A stretch of 63,977 nucleotides of DNA, the filler included, from Circinaria calcarea (lineage: Eukaryota): the NCBI GenBank assembly GCA_051942165.1. It is 7 parts of 7 records of this genome, joined end to end, with 100 filler letters (N's around TTAATTAATTAA, not from the genome) between each part and the next. Parts side by side here need not be neighbours in the genome. Positions count along the whole stretch, not along the records: positions 1 to 9,144 come from JAVECS010000976.1; 6 more parts are not named here. One strand, given 5' to 3'. The position numbers were made by a program, and so were the translations under genes. The notes below the pieces were generated by a model. It was not told the DNA's origin, did not search any database, and saw only the letters and a list, made by a program, of their open reading frames with translations. Positions within the stretch are counted from its first letter, which is position 1; every line of letters begins with the position of its first letter. Shown here one piece after another: positions 1-9,144 of the stretch.

Positions 1-450
1 ATATATAGGTTTTATATTAAAATTATTAATAAATAGTAAAAATAAGCTGAAAGAGGGTAAAAATCGGGGGAAAAAAAACTAAATCAGAACGGCGGCGTTT
101 CTAGGGCCTTAAAATAAATATAATAAAAAAATCTATTCTAATAAATTATTCGAAAGAATATTTAAAGCGAGTATTATAAATTATATTAAATTTTATTAAT
201 TAATTATTAATAAATTCAAAAAAATCATCGTTTATATAAAAATATTATTCCCCTCACCAAAAAGGCTGGATGAAAATTTTAGATTGCGTTTCGCGCGCAC
301 GCTATTTTTAGCATTTATTAACTATATACAGCCATTCCGAAAAATACGCGGCAGCGAAGCAAAAACAGTCTGAGTTTCTGAGATAAGGCCGCTATTAATT
401 TTATGCTTCGCTAGCGGTTCGCATTAATGAATTTACGCCCGAAGCCGAAG
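1..450. other. AT-rich, TpA-rich tract, probably RIP-degraded repeat/transposon relic
   Basis: Very low GC, abundant TA dinucleotides, no ORFs; abrupt transition to ordinary GC at ~450. Confidence 0.55.
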
Positions 451-937
451 GATTTATTTACAGACAATGCAGTTATTAGGCAAATCATGCGCTGGTCAGC
501 ATAGCCCTTTCAACAATCAGCCTAGATCACCCAATGGTTCTTCTACAGTAATAGACCCTTTGCATGGTGGCATTGCCTTCTGTGTCCAACAGACGAGTGA
601 GTAATATCCAGATAGCTTATTACTCGTGTCCTACTTGCATCAAAATGTTCTTGAGAATTCTTTGCTTTATATCGGGCATGACTTGCTCTCATGCAGACTT
701 TTAGATTTAATCACCTCGCTCTTACCGTTTCGTAAACAATATGTTCTTTTACAAAGCAAAACAGTATTTGTCTCAGTTTAAAGCTCAAAACAGCTCTGCT
801 GTACATCAAAGTTGCTTGTGTCACTCCATTATCTGAACTAGAGACCCGTACTTATTTGCTCCAGGGTAATTCGATACTGGTGTTACACACTTCATAATAC
901 GACACTACTGATAAAAGCATGTTGAAGTGGTTCTGTT

Positions 938-3900
938 CAGCAGCCCGGAGGCCATGATTTAGATCCGGATAATAATCACTCTCAACAACAGGCTAGATCA
1001 CATATCACCGCCTGTCCTCTGCAGTCTCTCCTTGAAGTCGCTGAAAATGAAAGAAACCATTCAAAGTCAAACAGAGGGGCTAAGCTTAACAACATTCTTG
1101 GTGGGATAGCCAAATTCGCGAAAAATATAGACAAGTTTTCTCAGGCTATCGATATCTACGTCCAGGGCAGCGCAGGTATAGCCACAATTATTTGGGGCAG
1201 TCTCAGGCTTCTTATAAAGGTCTAGTGTCATCACAAGTTCTTTTTTTTTTTTTAGATAGAGTTCAAGACTACTTATTAGTTCCAGGCAACTCTAAATTAT
1301 ACCCATATTCTCGAAAAGCTATCGGTAACTTTCATGGTCATTTCTGAGAATCTGGAGAGATTTGAGCGGTACAAGATCATATTCACTTCGTCGAAGCCCT
1401 TACAAGAAAGCATTGCAAAGCTTTACCACGACATTGCGGAATTCGCAATCCAAGCTGCTCAATTCTATGCAAAAAGCTCTACGAGTAAGTCACATCATGG
1501 TCCTCTAATCTGGTGCTAATCTACAGCAAAGGAACTTTCTTACTAAGCATTTGGAATGACTACGATTCCAAATTTGCAGACATCGTGACAAGTTTCCACC
1601 GGCACAGCGACTTAGTTCGTGACCAAGCCTGGCTGGCCTATTTCGATATTGATCTGCAGCGGAAAAACGGTATGCAACACTTGAATGTCATCGGTCAAAT
1701 GATGTCTCTAACCTTGAAGCTCGGATAGACGATGAGCTACGAAGCTATGAGAAAGATGTTGAGGATCTTGAACATTGGCTTTGCGCTAATAACAATGACG
1801 AAGTAAGGCATATCATGCCAGCACAGAGGCAGCCTTTTAAACAAGTACATCCTGGAACATGCACTTGGATTCTACCTGCACTGTCAGCTTGGATGAGCTC
1901 TCCGAGCCCTACACTGCTTTGGATTCGGGGATCCCTCGGAAGCGGCAAATCGGTTCTCGCATCTTTTATTATTAATCACTTATCACAGGCGGCGACTAGG
2001 GAAGATAGAGAAGTCCTTTTTTATTTCTGTAAGGATTCTCTTAGTGGTTATTATCTATCCGGTAATAATAAGTGCTCGATATAGGTGCTAAGAAGGGAAA
2101 TGCTCTGCATGTTGTAAAGAGTCTTCTCCTTAACCTATTAATAATACTCAGGTCACATCCAAGCCAAAAACTTCTCGTGAAACTACTCCGAGAGTTACGC
2201 ACCACTTGCGGTAATCCAAGACACACTCAAGACATCAGCGACTTACTTTGGAAGGCATTTCATTCTTCAATTCGAATGCTACCTTTGAAAGAATTATATT
2301 TCATCATTGATGGGATAGACGAGTTGTACCACGAGGATCAGTTAAATTTTATTGACAATCTGCTCTTACTTCAAAATGGTCCTTCAGATCTAGCCCTTAA
2401 AGTGAAGGTGATTGTGACTAGTCGACTAGAGTACAAATTCAGGTCGCATCAGACTAATTCACTTATTAAGTTCCTCGATATCGACTCTTGTCACACAGAG
2501 TCTGATATTAAAATGTTTGTTCATGCTACTTTCAGAGATTCAATCCGACTAAGGAGCATTGATCCTCCTCTGAGAAATGAAGTTGCTTCTGAACTTATAG
2601 CTAGATCTGAAGGGATGTTTCTGTGGGTGAACCTAGTGCTTCGAGAGTTAGAAAAGCAAGCTCCAAGTGTCCAACTACAACGGGCGATGGGAAAGGCATT
2701 AATCACTTTAAACGAGACCTTCAAAGATTATATCAATCACATCGTTCCCGGGAGCGGCATCTACTTTGTCTATCAAGTTCTAGTAGCTGCAGCCCGGCCC
2801 ATCAGCTTGAAGGATCTCCAGTCATTGCTGGAGGTTGAGCTCGAGAGCTCTGATACAGGGCGGCATGGAAGGATCCAAATATCACTTGAGGACTGCATCT
2901 ACGAACTCTACGGTTCAGTTATTGTATCGAAGGATGGCCATGTCCAGTTTTTCCATCATATATTCAAGGAATACCTTCTATCTTCTCAAGTATTAAATCT
3001 TCCCAGCTGTCATTCCATGATGGCTGCACTCTGCCTGACTTATGCGTCCTCCGACAAGTTCAACTTCGAGAATGGTACTCAGACTTTAACTCCAGACAAT
3101 TATTTCCAAAGTCTTGTCCAAAACTATCCGTTGCTTGACTATGCAATCAACTTCTGGTCGTTCCATTTTTCCGAAGCTAAATATACCAACGGTCTGAGCT
3201 GCTCAAACCCTGCAGCGAAAGCTTTGCGAAAAGCCCGCAACGTAGCTTGGATGGAACGTGTATGTTATAACTCAAACTTCTTGAGCAAAGCTGCTCAAGA
3301 CTACCAAGTGAGAAATATGGAGGCTCGCACGGTTTGCAAGGGACCTAATGATCTAGAGACTATTTCATCCACCATTGAAGTCGCCATCGTCCTACAAAGA
3401 CAGGGCAACGTCAGAGGATCGCAAATTATCTTTGAGAAGATACTTACACTTCAAAACTCAAAGAATTTAACTACTCTTCAACAGCACCAGGCTCTCGCTG
3501 GTCTTTCTAGATCCTACGAACGCCAAGGTCGCTGGAAAGATGCTGGCATTCAGTATCAACGTTGGCTGAGGTTTTGCAGAGACATGGGAAGGAAAGGAGG
3601 AAGACATACTATAGAAGCGCAAAACGGTCTGGCTTGGGTACTCAAGGCTCAAGGGTGTCTTTCAGGGGCCATTTCGTTGTACGAAGAATCGTACGCTACC
3701 GCGAAAAATCTCTTTGGGGCCACGCACGTGGAGACGAGGATGGCTGCTAACGAGCTTACTTTTATGTACGAGCAAGATGGACGCGGAGATAGGGCAAGGG
3801 CTATCTTGCTCTTTCAGATGAATGAATGTAGGCAAGCTCTTGGACCTACGCATTCGACTACGACCGAAAGCATAAGCTTGCTTACGTCTTTCCTCGAACG

Positions 3901-4654
3901 GAGAGGGGAATCTAAGGAAGCCGAAATTCTTTGCCAAGAGCTTTATGACGAATGTCAAGGCCAAAGTTTATCTAATATTGATATCGGGCAAAGACTGGCA
4001 GGTATGCTAGAAGAGCGTGGTGGTATTGATGAAGCGGAAGCTGTTCTTCGGTCGTTGTCAAAAGCCAGTGCAAAGCACCGGGACAGCAACTACACTAACA
4101 AAGTCCGAGCTTCTATTGCACTTGCAGAATTTTATCTTCGCCATAGGAGATGGGAGGAAGCTCTGACTAATCTCGAGCTCTATAAAAGCGGCTTAAATGA
4201 AAGATCTTGCTCGGAAGACCTTTTCAGGATCACTTTATCAATGGCGATATGCATGGAGAAACAAGGCCTATTAATGGAAGCAAAAAAAAAGTTTGAGGAT
4301 TTACTAGCTATCCGGGAATCAAGTTCCGGGTGGCTAAGCCGAAGGACTATGGACGCTGGAAATGAACTTGCTGCATATCTAGAACGGCAACAACAATGGG
4401 ATAGCGCCTCAAAAACCTATCAACATATCCACAGTAGCTACCGAAAAACCCTAGGAGCCGAGCATCGCTATACAATTGCTGCTTCGAAATCTTTGGCAGC
4501 TTACCACGAGCGTAGAAGAGAGTGGCACGAAGCCGAGAAACTTTATGACAGTATCTACGAATTGACGATTTCTACCAGGGGCCGCGATCACCATGATGTG
4601 AAAGAGATCTGGAAGAGGCAGCAGATTACAAAGCTACATCAGCTCGAGGTTTAA
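938..4654 (+). CDS. NLR-like STAND protein: helical N-terminal domain (DUF7708/Goodbye-like) + NACHT NTPase + C-terminal TPR repeats; multi-exon, true start uncertain
   Basis: Spliced exons give ...FSQAIDIYVQGSAGIATIIWGSLRLLIK (N-domain), HPGTCTW..LLWIRGSLGSGKS (Walker A), LYFIIDGIDE (Walker B), IVTSR, SEGMFLWV, FFHHIFKEYL, and kinesin-light-chain-type TPRs (e.g. LGPTHSTT, LGAEHRYT). GT-AG introns near 1220-1285, 1485-1530, 1670-1728, 2030-2085. Confidence 0.88.
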
Positions 4655-4825
4655 AAACCGAGAAGAACAAGGCTCAAATGACTTAAAAGATATATGGCAT
4701 TCTGCTTCTGCAACCTCGGTCCATATTGCATCGCCATCTCCTTCCTGTGCAAGGGCAGCAAACAACTAAGCTGGATCCACCTCTCCGAATCAGTAAGACA
4801 CTCTTTCCGAAAAATAGGCCTCAAT

Positions 4826-5029
4826 CTAGTGAGAACCACTACAATTAGGCTGACATTTGCTTAAAGTATCCGTGCTATCCATTTCCACTCTAGCATCTGA
4901 ACAGACGTGTTGTGCATTTGGAGCCTGGTTCCCAGCAAGTGTTTTGGCTTTGTCACAAAATCTATAGCTTGTGATGATTCTTCGTTCGCCGCAGGAAAAG
5001 TGCTTGTTGGTGCGATATATGATACACAT
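4826..5029 (-). CDS. Small cysteine-rich protein (67 aa, 6 Cys), no signal peptide
   Basis: ATG start; MC-x10-C-x11-C-x17-C-x15-CxxxC pattern; fills the gap between the NLR 3' end and the pseudokinase promoter. Confidence 0.5.
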   Translation of the reverse strand: MCIIYRTNKHFSCGERRIITSYRFCDKAKTLAGNQAPNAQHVCSDARVEMDSTDTLSKCQPNCSGSH

Positions 5030-5525
5030 CTCTTAAGCTCGTTGGAGGAGTTGTTCCTGATATTGATACGGCGTTTTGTAACGAATAGATATAGATATCA
5101 GAAGACACCAGAAAGAGAAACGGCAGTTATGAATAAAAGCCTTAGGAACTTAAACTAGTCCTGATTTTTGTTTGTTGTTCTTGTCGAAGTTTATTATTGA
5201 TCGAGCTGGAGTCGGTTTGTGATGGAGGGAAACTATTGTTACTTTATCTACATGTAGTAGGCATGTTTGGCGGAGTAACTGGCGCTAGGCAATTCAATTT
5301 TAGTGCAACCTCATGTAGGGCTACCCAAGGTTACACAGAATCATTCCCACATGCAGGGCTACCCAAATGTTTTCAGCTCGTTAGACTTGACAATCTATTG
5401 GCGCGATTTCAAACCATCTGAGCCTCGGTGTTCACTACTGCAGAGCAGCCGTCGGGGCCTCAATCTAACATGACTCACATTCTTTTGCGAACTTCACTTC
5501 GAGCAGAACATTACAATATCCAGTG

Positions 5526-7157
5526 ATGGCGAATCCGGAATCTGTGTTGACCAGTCCCTCGGCGACAGCAGAAAGTCTAAAATCCATCACAACATATTGT
5601 GTCCAGCATAGCCAACAAATCAACACCTATCTTGAAGAGATAGAAACGACGAAGAGCAAAGACATTGCGACCCTTAAACTTGAGTTCGCCGAATCCTTTG
5701 AACAAGTCGAGAGCGAGATTCGATTTGTCGCAGAGGTAGCCGATCATCTGGAAGTGGCTATGATAAAACATCTCGTACGGCCTTTGCACACCTTAGAAGG
5801 GATCCTTAATTCAACAAGTAGTGTTATCGCAGTTTACGCAGGGAACTCAGGTATCTTTGGCTCATGGCTCAGCGGAGATCATATCGAATCTTCCATTCAT
5901 CTGGTGGAGGACGTTAAAGGCGCCATCCAGAAGATCGAAGGCTGGCAAAACTCATTTCTACAACGCTTGTTCATGGTTCTGCTCCTCTGGAAGCCTGTCT
6001 CCCGTTATCATGCCAATAATCTGTGTAGCAATAACCGAAGCAAGGCCTTACAAGACTTCTTTAATATTCATAAGGCTATTAGCGATACCAGCGGACCGCA
6101 GAGTCATCGGTCTTTGGAATTAATCGGTACTCCAGGTCGACGAGTACGGCTCCCAGATTCCCAGATTTGGTTGTCGCAGGATCTTTTGTATGATCGCTGT
6201 GTAATGGAGTATAGGGAAGTGGACGAGGCCGTTAGCTTCAGCATGCTCAAAGAGTGCGTTAGGGAGTTGATCTGGGTGCTAGCCCAGACGGATCCATTGC
6301 GAATGGGAATACTACGAGGTTTGGGATTCTCCCGTACTAAATCTAGCTCCGAGGACCGCTTTGAGCTTGTATACGAATTTCCAGTGGGATTTACAAATCC
6401 ACGAACATTGAGGAATCTCCTCCTAGATCCAAACAACGCCAGGAGAGGCTCAGTACACTCAATCAGTGACCGATTTGAGTTGTCAAAGCAGCTAGCAAGA
6501 GCTCTGTTTTTTGTGCATGTCACTAGGAATGTCCACAAAAGCGTAAGGCCGGAGACAGTCTTGATTTTTGAGCCGGAAGGTGCTGTGGATAGGGAACGGT
6601 ACCCATATTCCATCGGCCGTGCATACCTAGTCGGTTTCGAGAAATTGCGTAAAGATGGGCCATATTCGAGGCGTGACGGTGATGGGGAATGGTACAAGGA
6701 CATCTACAGACATCCCGACCGACAAGGCCTTGATCCAGCCAAAGTCTATGACATGCGTCACGATATATATAGTTTAGGGGTCATGCTTCTTGAGATTGCA
6801 ATATGGAAGTCGTTTGTCGTCTGGGATACAACTTACGGGTATTTGAGTAACGAAAGTGCTATTCAGCTTCTCCAGAAGACGAATTCGAACGCAAAAACAG
6901 GTATGCAGACTGGTCATAATAAACAAGGTTTGAAACCACCGAAAGAAATACATGCTGTTTTCGTCAAAGCCGCGAAGCAGCAGATCCCTGTTTCTATGGG
7001 CACTAAGTTCGCTCACATAGTTGTGCAGTGCTTAAACTGCATGGGCTTGGACGGTAGCTCTGCTACTTGTTGGGACGGGAATAACAGTGATGAGGTAGAC
7101 ATTGGACTCATGTACATTGAGACTGTACTTGAGAAGCTAGAAGCGCTATCCATCTAA
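5526..7157 (+). CDS. Helical N-terminal (HeLo-like candidate) domain + protein-kinase-like pseudokinase domain
   Basis: Intronless 543 aa; HKSVRPETVLIF in place of HRDxKxxN, LVGFEKLR in place of DFG, YRHPDRQG, HDIYSLGVMLLEIAIW; amphipathic helical first ~190 aa. Matches the fungal HeLo/prion-inhibition + kinase-like architecture. Confidence 0.8.
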   Translation: MANPESVLTSPSATAESLKSITTYCVQHSQQINTYLEEIETTKSKDIATLKLEFAESFEQVESEIRFVAEVADHLEVAMIKHLVRPLHTLEGILNSTSSVIAVYAGNSGIFGSWLSGDHIESSIHLVEDVKGAIQKIEGWQNSFLQRLFMVLLLWKPVSRYHANNLCSNNRSKALQDFFNIHKAISDTSGPQSHRSLELIGTPGRRVRLPDSQIWLSQDLLYDRCVMEYREVDEAVSFSMLKECVRELIWVLAQTDPLRMGILRGLGFSRTKSSSEDRFELVYEFPVGFTNPRTLRNLLLDPNNARRGSVHSISDRFELSKQLARALFFVHVTRNVHKSVRPETVLIFEPEGAVDRERYPYSIGRAYLVGFEKLRKDGPYSRRDGDGEWYKDIYRHPDRQGLDPAKVYDMRHDIYSLGVMLLEIAIWKSFVVWDTTYGYLSNESAIQLLQKTNSNAKTGMQTGHNKQGLKPPKEIHAVFVKAAKQQIPVSMGTKFAHIVVQCLNCMGLDGSSATCWDGNNSDEVDIGLMYIETVLEKLEALSI

Positions 7158-7340
7158 CTAGAACCATCTACCTATATAGCACCATATATCTGAGGAGCAC
7201 TCTATACCTAGGAAGAAATGCTGTGGAGGAAGGTCAGCTGCTATTTGAATTTGGAAGGCTTGAAAGCTGAAATGAGGAGGTCTGAGCGAGCCAGTGGTAA
7301 TGCTATACTGCCTGCGTCGGTGGGTAGCTTGGACGAGTGT

Positions 7341-8726
7341 CTAAAAGAAGAGATCCTTCAACCTCGCGCACACCATCTGTGAAGTAGGTCTTTCAATGGG
7401 ATTGATATGGAGCATTTCTTTCACAGTTTGTATAGCCTGTTTCCTCGTGCTAGATTCCAAATTGCGGATCAGGTCATTCAACCAGGCTTCTACCTCATTA
7501 GCGTTGTTATGAAACGAATGGTCAGGTCCAGAAGACGGGTATCGGTGTTGTTTAGGACCATTCTGTCTGTAAATCTTGAACTTGGTGACGCCACTGGCGC
7601 TCCAACCATATACTGCAAGAGTCGCAATCTCGCTGAAGACGCATCCTAAGCCCCATATATCAACAGATCTTCCAAATTGTCCATTTGAAAGTGACTTGTC
7701 GAAGTACTCTGGAGGACTATAGGTATATGTTCCTCCGTGCCAGTCTGTTTTCGTGTCTTCTTGTGATTTGAGCCCGGACAACCCAAAATCCGCTAGCTGG
7801 AAGGTACATCCCTTGATAAGGATGTTGGCTGGCTTGATATCGTGGTGATTTATGACTTGGCCGGTACCGTTGTGTAGGTAGTCAAGAGCCGATGCTAGAC
7901 AGTGAAGAGACCCCCAAAGTGTAGCCTCTTGCTCCTGCATAGATTCACCAAAGAGACTGGGCGGCTTGGACATTTCGAAAATCTGCTGAAGGTTGTAATC
8001 GCCGCATGATAGCAGTATGTAATGGTCGAGATCCATAGTATAGATCCCATACAGCTCGACGATATGGCGATGCTTTGCCCTCGTAGCTAGCAGACTTCTT
8101 AAGACCGCCGCCTCCCTTTGAAAGGCATCTCTTGAACTCAAAATATTGTCTTCTGGGATTCCATGTATCTTGATCCTCTTCCGCGCCAGCACGTGGTCCT
8201 GGAATGAATTGTGTGTATTATCTCCCACTAGCCGCATATGCGAAGGGTAGACTGAAACTCTTTCTACATCCTTTCCCAAGTAATCTTCGTCAACAAAAGG
8301 TAGGACACTTTCTGTGGAGAAGCTGTAGTCGCGACCTTGCACAAAAACAGGTGCCAAGACTTGCCACTGAGCAGTCAGGATATCGTTTGCGCGGCCAAGA
8401 TTCTGAGGCAGAGTGGAAGATGTATCAAGTGGCAAGGAGTTATCGTCAAGGCCGCGTTGTATAAACTCGAATATAAAGTGTTCTTTCTCGCATAAGACGA
8501 GAATGGCAAAGAGCCTTATCGTCGACGAGGTGATGATATCAAGGTAAGTTCTCCTATCTGCATTGTCGACTGTATCCCGTAATCTGGTCTCAAGGCTCTC
8601 GAGACGGCCACTCATATGGTTCAAGATATTTTGACTCGTGATAAGGGTGTGAAGCCTATCGAGAGGGATGAATAATTGACCGGATGTGTTCTTGACACTA
8701 GCTATATGCAAGAACTTCTTGAGCAT
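7341..8726 (-). CDS. Ser/Thr protein kinase with fungal-specific N-terminal domain
   Basis: Intronless 461 aa; LARKRI (beta3 Lys), FQREAAVL (alphaC Glu), HHDIKPANILI, LADFGLS, GTYTYSPPE, DIWGLGCVFSE. Confidence 0.9.
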   Translation of the reverse strand: MLKKFLHIASVKNTSGQLFIPLDRLHTLITSQNILNHMSGRLESLETRLRDTVDNADRRTYLDIITSSTIRLFAILVLCEKEHFIFEFIQRGLDDNSLPLDTSSTLPQNLGRANDILTAQWQVLAPVFVQGRDYSFSTESVLPFVDEDYLGKDVERVSVYPSHMRLVGDNTHNSFQDHVLARKRIKIHGIPEDNILSSRDAFQREAAVLRSLLATRAKHRHIVELYGIYTMDLDHYILLSCGDYNLQQIFEMSKPPSLFGESMQEQEATLWGSLHCLASALDYLHNGTGQVINHHDIKPANILIKGCTFQLADFGLSGLKSQEDTKTDWHGGTYTYSPPEYFDKSLSNGQFGRSVDIWGLGCVFSEIATLAVYGWSASGVTKFKIYRQNGPKQHRYPSSGPDHSFHNNANEVEAWLNDLIRNLESSTRKQAIQTVKEMLHINPIERPTSQMVCARLKDLFF

Positions 8727-8914
8727 GGCAATGTACTAGGTAGTAGCTTCTCGAGATAGCAAATACATTTCACGCAAAGGCGCGGCGAAAATGCCCTGAA
8801 ACGAGGTACGAGAGAAAGGGTTTAAATCTGGGCACGACCCGGTCCGATCCAATTACCCCAGTTCTCAAACGTAGAAAGCTAAGCCCCTTCGGGTTAGCGG
8901 CCAGCCGAGATGAA

Positions 8915-9144
8915 TTAATTAATTTCGACTTAATACGTTTAAAAACAAAATTATATAACTTTTTTTATTTATTTTATTTTAATATAAACGCTATATAAAT
9001 TTTATTAAATAAGAAGTTAATATACGGGTATATAAAAATTCTATATTACGCGTGTTAATATTAACGCGTTTCTATAAAATTTTCTTTTTAGCTTCGTATT
9101 AAATGAATTATATATTTTATATATATTATATTTAATATATAAAT
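8915..9144. other. AT-rich, TpA-rich tract at contig end, probably RIP-degraded repeat
   Basis: Abrupt switch to very AT-rich sequence without ORFs. Confidence 0.55.

Follow-up and report, generated by a model that had tools for sequence, protein, structure and literature searches.

A conserved MLKL-like pseudokinase of Circinaria calcarea encoded beside a Ser/Thr kinase and an NLR: a candidate fungal cell-death switch

The stretch of Circinaria calcarea DNA analysed here (the window, 63,977 nucleotides in seven parts, from assembly GCA_051942165.1) opens at positions 1-9144 with one whole contig (JAVECS010000976.1; contig C976 of this genome, G000), on which three genes lie: a NOD-like receptor (NLR), a pseudokinase and a Ser/Thr kinase. 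The pseudokinase gene, our subject, can be read as a 543-residue open reading frame (ORF; 5526-7157, plus strand) with no need of an intron. No in-frame ATG is present within the 19 open codons preceding M1, and an 18-codon upstream ORF at 5470-5526, the stop of which overlaps the ATG of the gene (TGATG), may reflect either chance or translational control. The gene and its parts are as follows.

5526..7157, plus strand: MLKL-like gene, 543 aa in a single exon, comprising four-helix bundle, brace and pseudokinase
5556..5987, plus strand: four-helix bundle, aa 11-154 (helices 11-40, 45-74, 77-107 and 117-154), as predicted by AlphaFold2
5955..5990, plus strand: FLQRLFMVLLLW, aa 144-155, the end of helix 4 and the subclade form of an FDPSW(Y/F)LI motif
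5991..6092, plus strand: brace-like helices, approximately aa 156-189, linking bundle to pseudokinase in the AlphaFold2 models
6093..7154, plus strand: pseudokinase domain, aa 190-543, with E228 at the β3 Lys position, HKSVRPET, GFE, YRHP and αF
6666..6668, plus strand: S381, candidate phospho-switch site and sole conserved activation-loop Ser/Thr (177/179)

All the kinase motifs reported in a preliminary description of the sequence are present in the ORF: the catalytic loop reads H337-K-S-V-R-P-E-T344, with Ser instead of Asp and Thr instead of Asn, G370-F-E stands at the DFG site, there is no GxGxxG between N-lobe strands 1 and 2, and the C-lobe is intact, with YRHP at 394-397 and DIYSLGVMLLEI at 413-424. 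A word-limited search that scored 8,000 candidates found 33 homologues, nine of them close (41-55% identity, aligned end to end) and 23 more distant, and those with names are mainly from Aspergillus, Penicillium and lichen fungi. The profile built from these 33 reached 6,265 representatives at E <= 0.001 and 1,188 at E <= 1e-30, in a family of more than 1000 clusters at 50% identity. In an alignment of 179 sequences (the 33 homologues and 146 new ones from the best 150 profile matches) Asp occupies the HRD position in 3 of 178 aligned relatives and the DFG position in none of 177, and the β3 Lys is found in none of 177, of which 162 have Asp or Glu there, as does the window protein (E228). All four canonical catalytic elements are gone family-wide, and the near-invariant positions are H337, K338, P342, G370, R375, YRHP, R399-Q-G and the αF segment, with K or R at K338 (the HRD-Arg position) in 176/178 and R375 kept in 176/178. 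Because the catalytic losses run through the whole family, the aligned sequences indicate that the window protein is a conserved pseudokinase, its motif losses being family traits, and not a decayed kinase. An Arg in the αC region is conserved in 138 of 177 relatives while the β3 Lys has given way to Asp/Glu (the residues concerned here are 228, 246 and 375), and a charge-reversed salt bridge between these two positions is possible. A quick, midpoint-rooted tree of 57 of the 180 family rows separates the subclade of the window protein from the other rows by a branch of length 1.02 that has support 100.

Ser, Thr and Tyr residues of the activation segment had been put forward as phospho-sites, and here the alignment separates one from the rest. 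S381 is Ser or Thr in 177 of 179 sequences, and Y380 (Ser, Thr or Tyr in 15/179) and Y390 (12/178) are not conserved; Y394 is invariant, yet part of the YRHP motif. In RD kinases the HRD-Arg position binds the activation-loop phosphate. In the alignment with a 76-sequence family profile S381 coincides with S347 of mouse MLKL, which we take to be phosphorylated as well, two residues past S345. The latter is given as the RIPK3 site in a passage of PMC7305131, from which the offset of 5 in mouse MLKL numbering was inferred using Q343, K219 and S345. Phosphorylation of S381 by a cognate kinase is what we infer from the sequences.

Residues 11-186 are wholly helical in both AlphaFold2 models, that of the full-length protein (predicted local distance difference test score, pLDDT, 80.3; predicted template modelling score 0.83) and that of residues 1-190 (pLDDT 89.0), and the brace is modelled as short helices at about 156-169 followed by a helix at 173-189. 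When the full model was searched with Foldseek, mouse MLKL ranked first (4btf, E 2e-8), its pseudokinase domain second (4m68) and Arabidopsis MLKL3 third (6ka4) of at least 500 matches. The 76-sequence profile, compared with 177,635 PDB sequences, likewise placed full-length mouse MLKL first (E 6.3e-11; next match 2e-8), in a single stretch (profile 14-411, chain 9-398) that covers bundle and pseudokinase, aligns GFE with GFE and sets the profile's β3 Asp on mouse K219. Two further MLKL hallmarks, a four-helix bundle homologous to that of MLKL and a kinase fold lacking both the HRD and the DFG Asp, are found, and the brace helices are present at the level of the models. The MLKL-like architecture and pseudokinase status claimed at the outset are therefore backed by model, Foldseek, family profile and alignment counts, and we regard them as nearly certain; on sequence and model the protein is homologous to MLKL in architecture, and probably also in descent.

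Several observations weigh against this assignment or limit it. The β3 (VAIK) Lys retained by MLKL (mouse K219) occurs in 0/177 relatives. In a structure-only wide search the full model retrieved kinase folds at Z 17-20, MLKL did not stand above other kinases and rat MLKL ranked 28th, while a profile of the ten-sequence subclade reached MLKL at E 0.011 only. The bundle alone is best matched by generic helical bundles (top Z 11.2; coiled-coil domain of Rx, Rx-CC, Z 9.6; AtMLKL3 Z 8.8), its matches at Z 7-11, a level below that which discriminates helical bundles, including Rx-CC, AtMLKL3, MLA13 and NRG1.1 together with unrelated bundles. Foldseek with residues 1-190 gave no match at E <= 0.001, a result still compatible with homology, and no mammalian MLKL four-helix bundle was among the matches listed in the fold searches with this region. 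In the Pfam check proposed in the preliminary description HeLo (PF14479) matched neither the window protein nor the 33-member alignment nor any of the 76 members; PF17111 (HeLo-like) matched 2/76 members (best E 0.029) and not the window protein. An alignment of the N-domain family against the HeLo domain of a paralogue in the same genome (C569) scored a probability of 0.5% in hhalign, with a single-sequence template, and a hidden Markov model of the N-domain did not recognise the C569 HeLo ORF (E 5.8). In the ESM Atlas the clusters nearest to residues 1-190 that carry names are HeLo (0.89, 0.87 and 0.85), PF17111 and SesA, all below 0.9 and a lead only. Assignment to HeLo, HELL or SesA by Pfam was consequently rejected, there being nothing beyond the two weak PF17111 matches, and below-threshold matches to DUF3932 and ADPrib_exo_Tox, each in a single member, were set aside as helical noise. 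By its sequence the protein is neither a formal MLKL, given the missing β3 Lys, nor a Pfam HeLo protein.

HELL was reportedly first linked to MLKL by Daskalov et al. (PNAS, 2016). That some HELL domains belong to kinase or pseudokinase proteins recalling MLKL is stated in a passage of PMC12881547, and the present family, with its 1,188 representatives, very probably belongs among them, so MLKL-like architecture in fungi is already in print and is not itself new. Among the relatives, P0027 bears the name 'HET-s/LopB domain protein', and C569 joins Pfam HeLo to the same type of pseudokinase. The bundle of the window protein differs from those of fungal HeLo/HELL-(pseudo)kinases in having neither a Pfam HeLo or PF17111 match nor a hydrophobic first helix. 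HeLo-pseudokinase proteins of this genome lie at L021:4474-6123 and L018:3625-7101 (Pfam HeLo E 8.6e-18 and 3.9e-5), the latter with a long C-terminal extension.

The question of a membrane-active helix turns on this N-terminal region, which had been described as helical over its first ~190 residues with a hydrophobic patch. The two models bear out the helicity but not a patch acting as membrane helix: the FLQRLF segment forms the C-terminal end of helix 4, which rules it out as a transmembrane or insertion helix, its family counterpart being the motif W-x3-FDPSW(Y/F)LI, and the five most hydrophobic 19-residue segments of the protein all lie inside the kinase C-lobe. Killing by HeLo and HELL domains depends on a membrane-prone helix at the N-terminus, according to passages of PMC10197012 and PMC12881547. 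A helix of this kind (11-residue hydropathy >=1.8) is present in 44 of the 60 other family members scored, and both the sister sequence P0182 and the paralogue C1771 keep it, but it is missing in all nine scored members of the subclade, where the best value is <=1.07 and that of the window protein 0.25; nine of the other 60 are as low as the subclade, several of them probably through wrong start calls, and the scoring left out 110 of 179 rows that have no usable N-terminus. A missed upstream exon encoding the hydrophobic stretch is unlikely, as database relatives in the subclade begin at the same place and also lack it. Residues 1-155 are moreover acidic (10 K/R against 20 D/E). The MLKL bundle binds phosphoinositides through basic patches. 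With no hydrophobic N-terminal helix, an acidic bundle, no Pfam HeLo match and a patch misplaced for insertion, the earlier designation 'membrane-targeting domain' finds no support in the window protein. Since HeLo/HELL killing needs the helix that the subclade lacks, direct membrane damage by this protein would be the weakest step of any mechanism built on it.

The two genes that accompany the pseudokinase gene on the contig are the following.

7341..8726, minus strand: Ser/Thr kinase, 461 aa, convergent with the pseudokinase gene; Pkinase E 9e-28, catalytic motifs intact; candidate cognate activator
971..4654, plus strand: multi-exon NLR with DUF7708, NACHT-type NTPase, winged helix and tetratricopeptide repeats (TPR); exon joins read by eye, start provisional

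The kinase gene lies tail-to-tail with the pseudokinase gene, 183 bp past its stop, and has the β3 Lys183, αC Glu205, an HHDIKPAN loop and DFG; K183, E205, H294, D296, K298, N301 and D313-F-G315 are invariant in 26 aligned kinases, and the close orthologues show no clear GxGxxG loop. Its motifs predict an intact, active Ser/Thr protein kinase. It carries no repeat domain. Residues 1-140 form a conserved N-terminal domain (LFxILVL...DDxxLP) with no Pfam name, which recurs in the kinase-pseudokinase fusions described below and is a candidate NLR- or pseudokinase-binding module. In the NLR the helical DUF7708 domain (E 1.5e-8 at 1283-1483) precedes the NTPase (NPHP3_N, E 6.5e-14 at 1722-2027; Walker A GSLGSGKS), the first exon being provisional. 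A database gene model identical to the window NLR (P0322) skips the Walker A stretch (window 1815-2084), while a 56-nt intron near 2029-2084, placed by eye, keeps the NTPase in frame; as read from the sequence the NLR looks intact.

The kinase has six close orthologue clusters at 40-50% identity, beyond which similarity drops to generic kinases. A lookup covering these six and all nine close pseudokinase clusters, with the window added and 8,000 candidates scored in both searches, found the two genes linked in five of the ten pseudokinase clusters and five of the seven kinase clusters that are closely related, window included. In Coleophoma cylindrospora the pair BP6252_14155/BP6252_14156 (RDW56453 and RDW56454) has consecutive accessions on one 13,141-bp contig. 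The ENA pair P0003/P0035 lies on equal-sized contigs of 8,747, 21,639, 30,295, 49,811 and 1,627,377 bp (5/6 members), the JGI pair P0009/P0037 on equal-sized contigs of 63,304, 70,392 and 144,519 bp (3/4), and a second JGI pair, P0344/P0039, on a 16,461-bp contig. Linked kinase and pseudokinase diverge similarly, the Spearman coefficient of 0.66 being weak in that it comes from ten non-independent pairs; we do not count it as co-evolution. The only close NLR homologue in the word-limited search, P0323 (37% identity over 99%), is on a contig of 13,552,908 bp, the same size as that of the top pseudokinase homologue, P0002. Three points tell against linkage as evidence of a common pathway: most of it is inferred indirectly from equal-sized contigs with gene order unread, P0002, P0004, P0005, P0006, P0008, P0038 and P0040 have no partner (5/10 pseudokinase and 2/7 kinase clusters), P0005 and P0008 sitting on contigs of <=4.1 kb, and the NLR linkage hangs on that one 13.5-Mb contig. 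On contig membership, nevertheless, the kinase linkage is conserved, and the neighbour kinase is likely to be the functional partner of the pseudokinase; for the NLR, membership of the same pathway is only slightly favoured. In the literature searched, outside which lay supplements and subscription papers, we found no description of a kinase gene accompanying a fungal pseudokinase of MLKL type in a cluster. What makes the locus interesting is that the pseudokinase has a conserved partner kinase and only one conserved phospho-acceptor, and that the bundle of the subclade is altered.

Comparison of six metagenome loci (L009-L014) and 13 matches in the C. calcarea genome extends the association beyond close relatives. 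A kinase gene lies within ~2 kb at all three distinct metagenome loci long enough to assess (L014 is too short): at L009 it is ~2 kb downstream; at L010-L012, which represent one sequence, the distance downstream is 0.45 kb, and in L011 the kinase is succeeded by near-identical WD40 repeats (L011:12547-13380) that probably belong to the same gene; and at L013 a head-to-head kinase-ankyrin gene accompanies the same pseudokinase type with a different N-terminus. Repeats of high internal conservation, which those of L011 resemble, are known from fungal NLR sensors. In the C. calcarea genome a kinase gene is within ~2 kb at three of five assessable unfused loci (C976, C1771 and C569), the latter two being head-to-head with a kinase-ankyrin gene; C1771 and C3140 probably represent the two halves of a single complete bundle-pseudokinase gene, and the C4073 match is on a 1.9-kb contig. 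Against the association, C42 (nearest kinase ~6.4 kb) and C506 have no adjacent kinase. Kinase candidates number no more than 283 over 31.5 Mb, so that chance alone would place one within 3 kb of ~5% of loci or fewer, an estimate that could rise if immune-type genes cluster. Six further proteins of this genome fuse kinase to pseudokinase (C518, C1064, C763, C416, C167 and C527; loci L019, L020, L023, L024, L025 and L026), their kinase halves all lying within the top nine paralogues of the window kinase, and a second, separate, repeat-bearing kinase gene lies near five of the six within the 8-10 kb fetched. Such tandem proteins are reminiscent of plant tandem kinase proteins. At L013:3379-5238 and L017:1670-3583 the pseudokinase type follows an N-terminal region with an LLLLDCC-like motif, which we assume to be suggestive of a caspase-like fold; the L017 region has no Pfam match. 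The pseudokinase may, to judge from these sequences, switch effectors other than helical bundles. The window differs from these wider relatives in that a repeat-less kinase shares the locus with an NLR, and since the kinase has no repeat domain while an NLR lies nearby, the arrangement suggests that the NLR supplies its sensor.

The ends of the contig and the next contig can be described briefly.

1..470, no strand: AT-rich left contig end, GC content 0.29
8906..9144, no strand: AT-rich right contig end, GC content 0.15, CpA/TpG depleted

Repeat-induced point mutation was rejected as the cause of both AT-rich ends, CpA/TpG depletion being confined to the right one and absent from the genes. 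The next contig (window 10200-15100) bears putative cytochrome P450-like and MFS transporter-like genes, so named from their motifs and unrelated to the present finding.

The reading we prefer, with a probability of roughly 0.5, is that the three genes encode a cell-death switch working like RIPK3-MLKL, with the pseudokinase as both switch and effector in a small fungal gene cluster for immunity or non-self cell death. The pseudokinase would hold the bundle latched. On sensing a non-self cue the TPR NLR would cluster or activate the repeat-less kinase, a role taken in relatives without the NLR by the kinase's own ankyrin or WD40 sensor. The kinase would then dock on the pseudokinase and phosphorylate S381, possibly read by K338 and R375, and the freed bundle would oligomerise and either damage membranes or recruit a downstream killer. 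Of the conformational switch restraining a membrane-targeting domain envisaged earlier, the phospho-switch has become more plausible, because S381 is conserved and an active-type kinase is linked, and the membrane-targeting part is not supported for this protein. That the protein's own bundle is the killer has odds a shade under even.

The loss of the hydrophobic helix across the whole subclade, while sister P0182 keeps it, and the acidity of the bundle would also be expected if the bundle had been disarmed to an interaction surface. In that case the kinase, or the kinase-pseudokinase pair, would be a bait perturbed by a microbial effector or non-self allele, the pseudokinase an adaptor and the NLR with its DUF7708 domain the killer, a guard or decoy triad comparable to plant ZAR1-RKS1-PBL2. 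It is in keeping with this that the NLR itself possesses a helical domain at its N-terminus and that its one close homologue is on a contig sized like that of a subclade member. Given the missing helix and the acidic bundle, a role as adaptor or inhibitor that does not itself kill competes seriously with the death switch. We nonetheless consider the triad itself unlikely: the word-limited search found an NLR homologue for only 1/10 subclade clusters, as against a linked kinase in five, the bundle is full-length and well folded in the models, and the first helix of mouse MLKL, as placed by the profile alignment, likewise has no long hydrophobic leader. The six kinase-pseudokinase fusions, in which the same two domain types are joined, raise a different option, that the pseudokinase is a brake, binding and restraining a signalling or toxic kinase as a split version of the fusions, with the bundle a scaffold; JH2 of JAK acts in this way. 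The occurrence of the pseudokinase module behind other N-terminal domains (L013 and L017), where it would not serve a pore-forming bundle, fits a brake too, but separate repeat-bearing kinases near five of six fusions suit a pseudokinase acting as input module, the near-invariant S/T381 suits a substrate and the profile similarity to MLKL runs through the bundle, all of which makes the brake improbable.

More improbable again are the possibilities that the three genes have nothing to do with one another and ride together in an island poor in genes and quick to evolve, or that the protein has an atypical enzymatic activity. Immune-type genes do accumulate in AT-rich DNA, and on a contig flanked by such DNA neighbours could be enriched without sharing a pathway, but orthologous pairs persist at ~40% identity in five lineages, both genes being similarly diverged. 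Nucleotide binding by the invariant H337, K338, R375 and D413 is conceivable, yet the family as a whole has lost the four canonical catalytic elements.

The NLR-kinase-pseudokinase switch we favour can be set beside several known systems. Vertebrate MLKL (4btf, 4m68 and 4m69) shares with the window protein the succession of bundle, brace and pseudokinase, the change of DFG to GFE, the missing catalytic Asp and an activation-loop Ser at or near the position targeted by RIPK3. The window protein differs in its Asp/Glu for the β3 Lys, its longer, acidic bundle, a structural identity of 15% and the position of the conserved site, GFE+11 as compared with GFE+9 for mouse S345, and its putative partner is a kinase of a fungal family encoded next door, where vertebrates use RIPK3. 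AtMLKL3 (6ka4) aligns with the N-domain over 148 residues including the brace, with root-mean-square deviation 5.2 and a Z of 8.8 that is within helical-bundle noise; we know of no clustered kinase or NLR gene for plant MLKLs. The plant ZAR1-RKS1/ZED1-PBL2 system also has NLR, pseudokinase and kinase acting together, but RKS1 lacks a four-helix bundle, the NLR is of another class and the genes do not form one cluster. Closer in organisation are the fungal NLR-effector clusters (NWD2/HET-S, PNT1/HELLP, gasdermin-protease and het-V), likewise of two or three genes, in which passages of PMC12881547, PMC10197012 and PMC9262711 describe an NLR or repeat-bearing sensor beside a helical-bundle effector. 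In these the signal passes through amyloid templating, through proteolysis or, as has been proposed, through a methyl mark, whereas the window cluster would signal by phosphorylation; the window protein has no room for a C-terminal prion-forming tail, its modelled C-lobe helix running to residue 540 of 543.

Taken more widely, the data suggest, tentatively and with slightly more doubt than belief, that ascomycetes carry a widespread, gene-clustered kinase-to-pseudokinase death switch, a counterpart of RIPK3-MLKL in which kinase-ankyrin, kinase-WD40 or NLR-served kinases phosphorylate a near-invariant activation-loop Ser/Thr of the MLKL-homologous pseudokinase next door and so free its N-terminal effector. 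A 2025 review (PMC12881547) asks for studies of the extent to which fungi share necroptosis, and we found no activator named in the literature for fungal proteins of MLKL architecture; with a conserved neighbour kinase and a single conserved phospho-acceptor the question becomes testable with three genes. Should the subclade bundle prove disarmed, the locus would represent a fungal NLR-pseudokinase-kinase guard system, also notable. If the proposed switch is real, phosphorylation would take its place with amyloid templating and proteolysis among the triggers of regulated cell death in fungi, the necroptosis pseudokinase switch would not be confined to animals and plants, and immune modules of this sort would make up a large class in fungi, of more than 1000 clusters at 50% identity.

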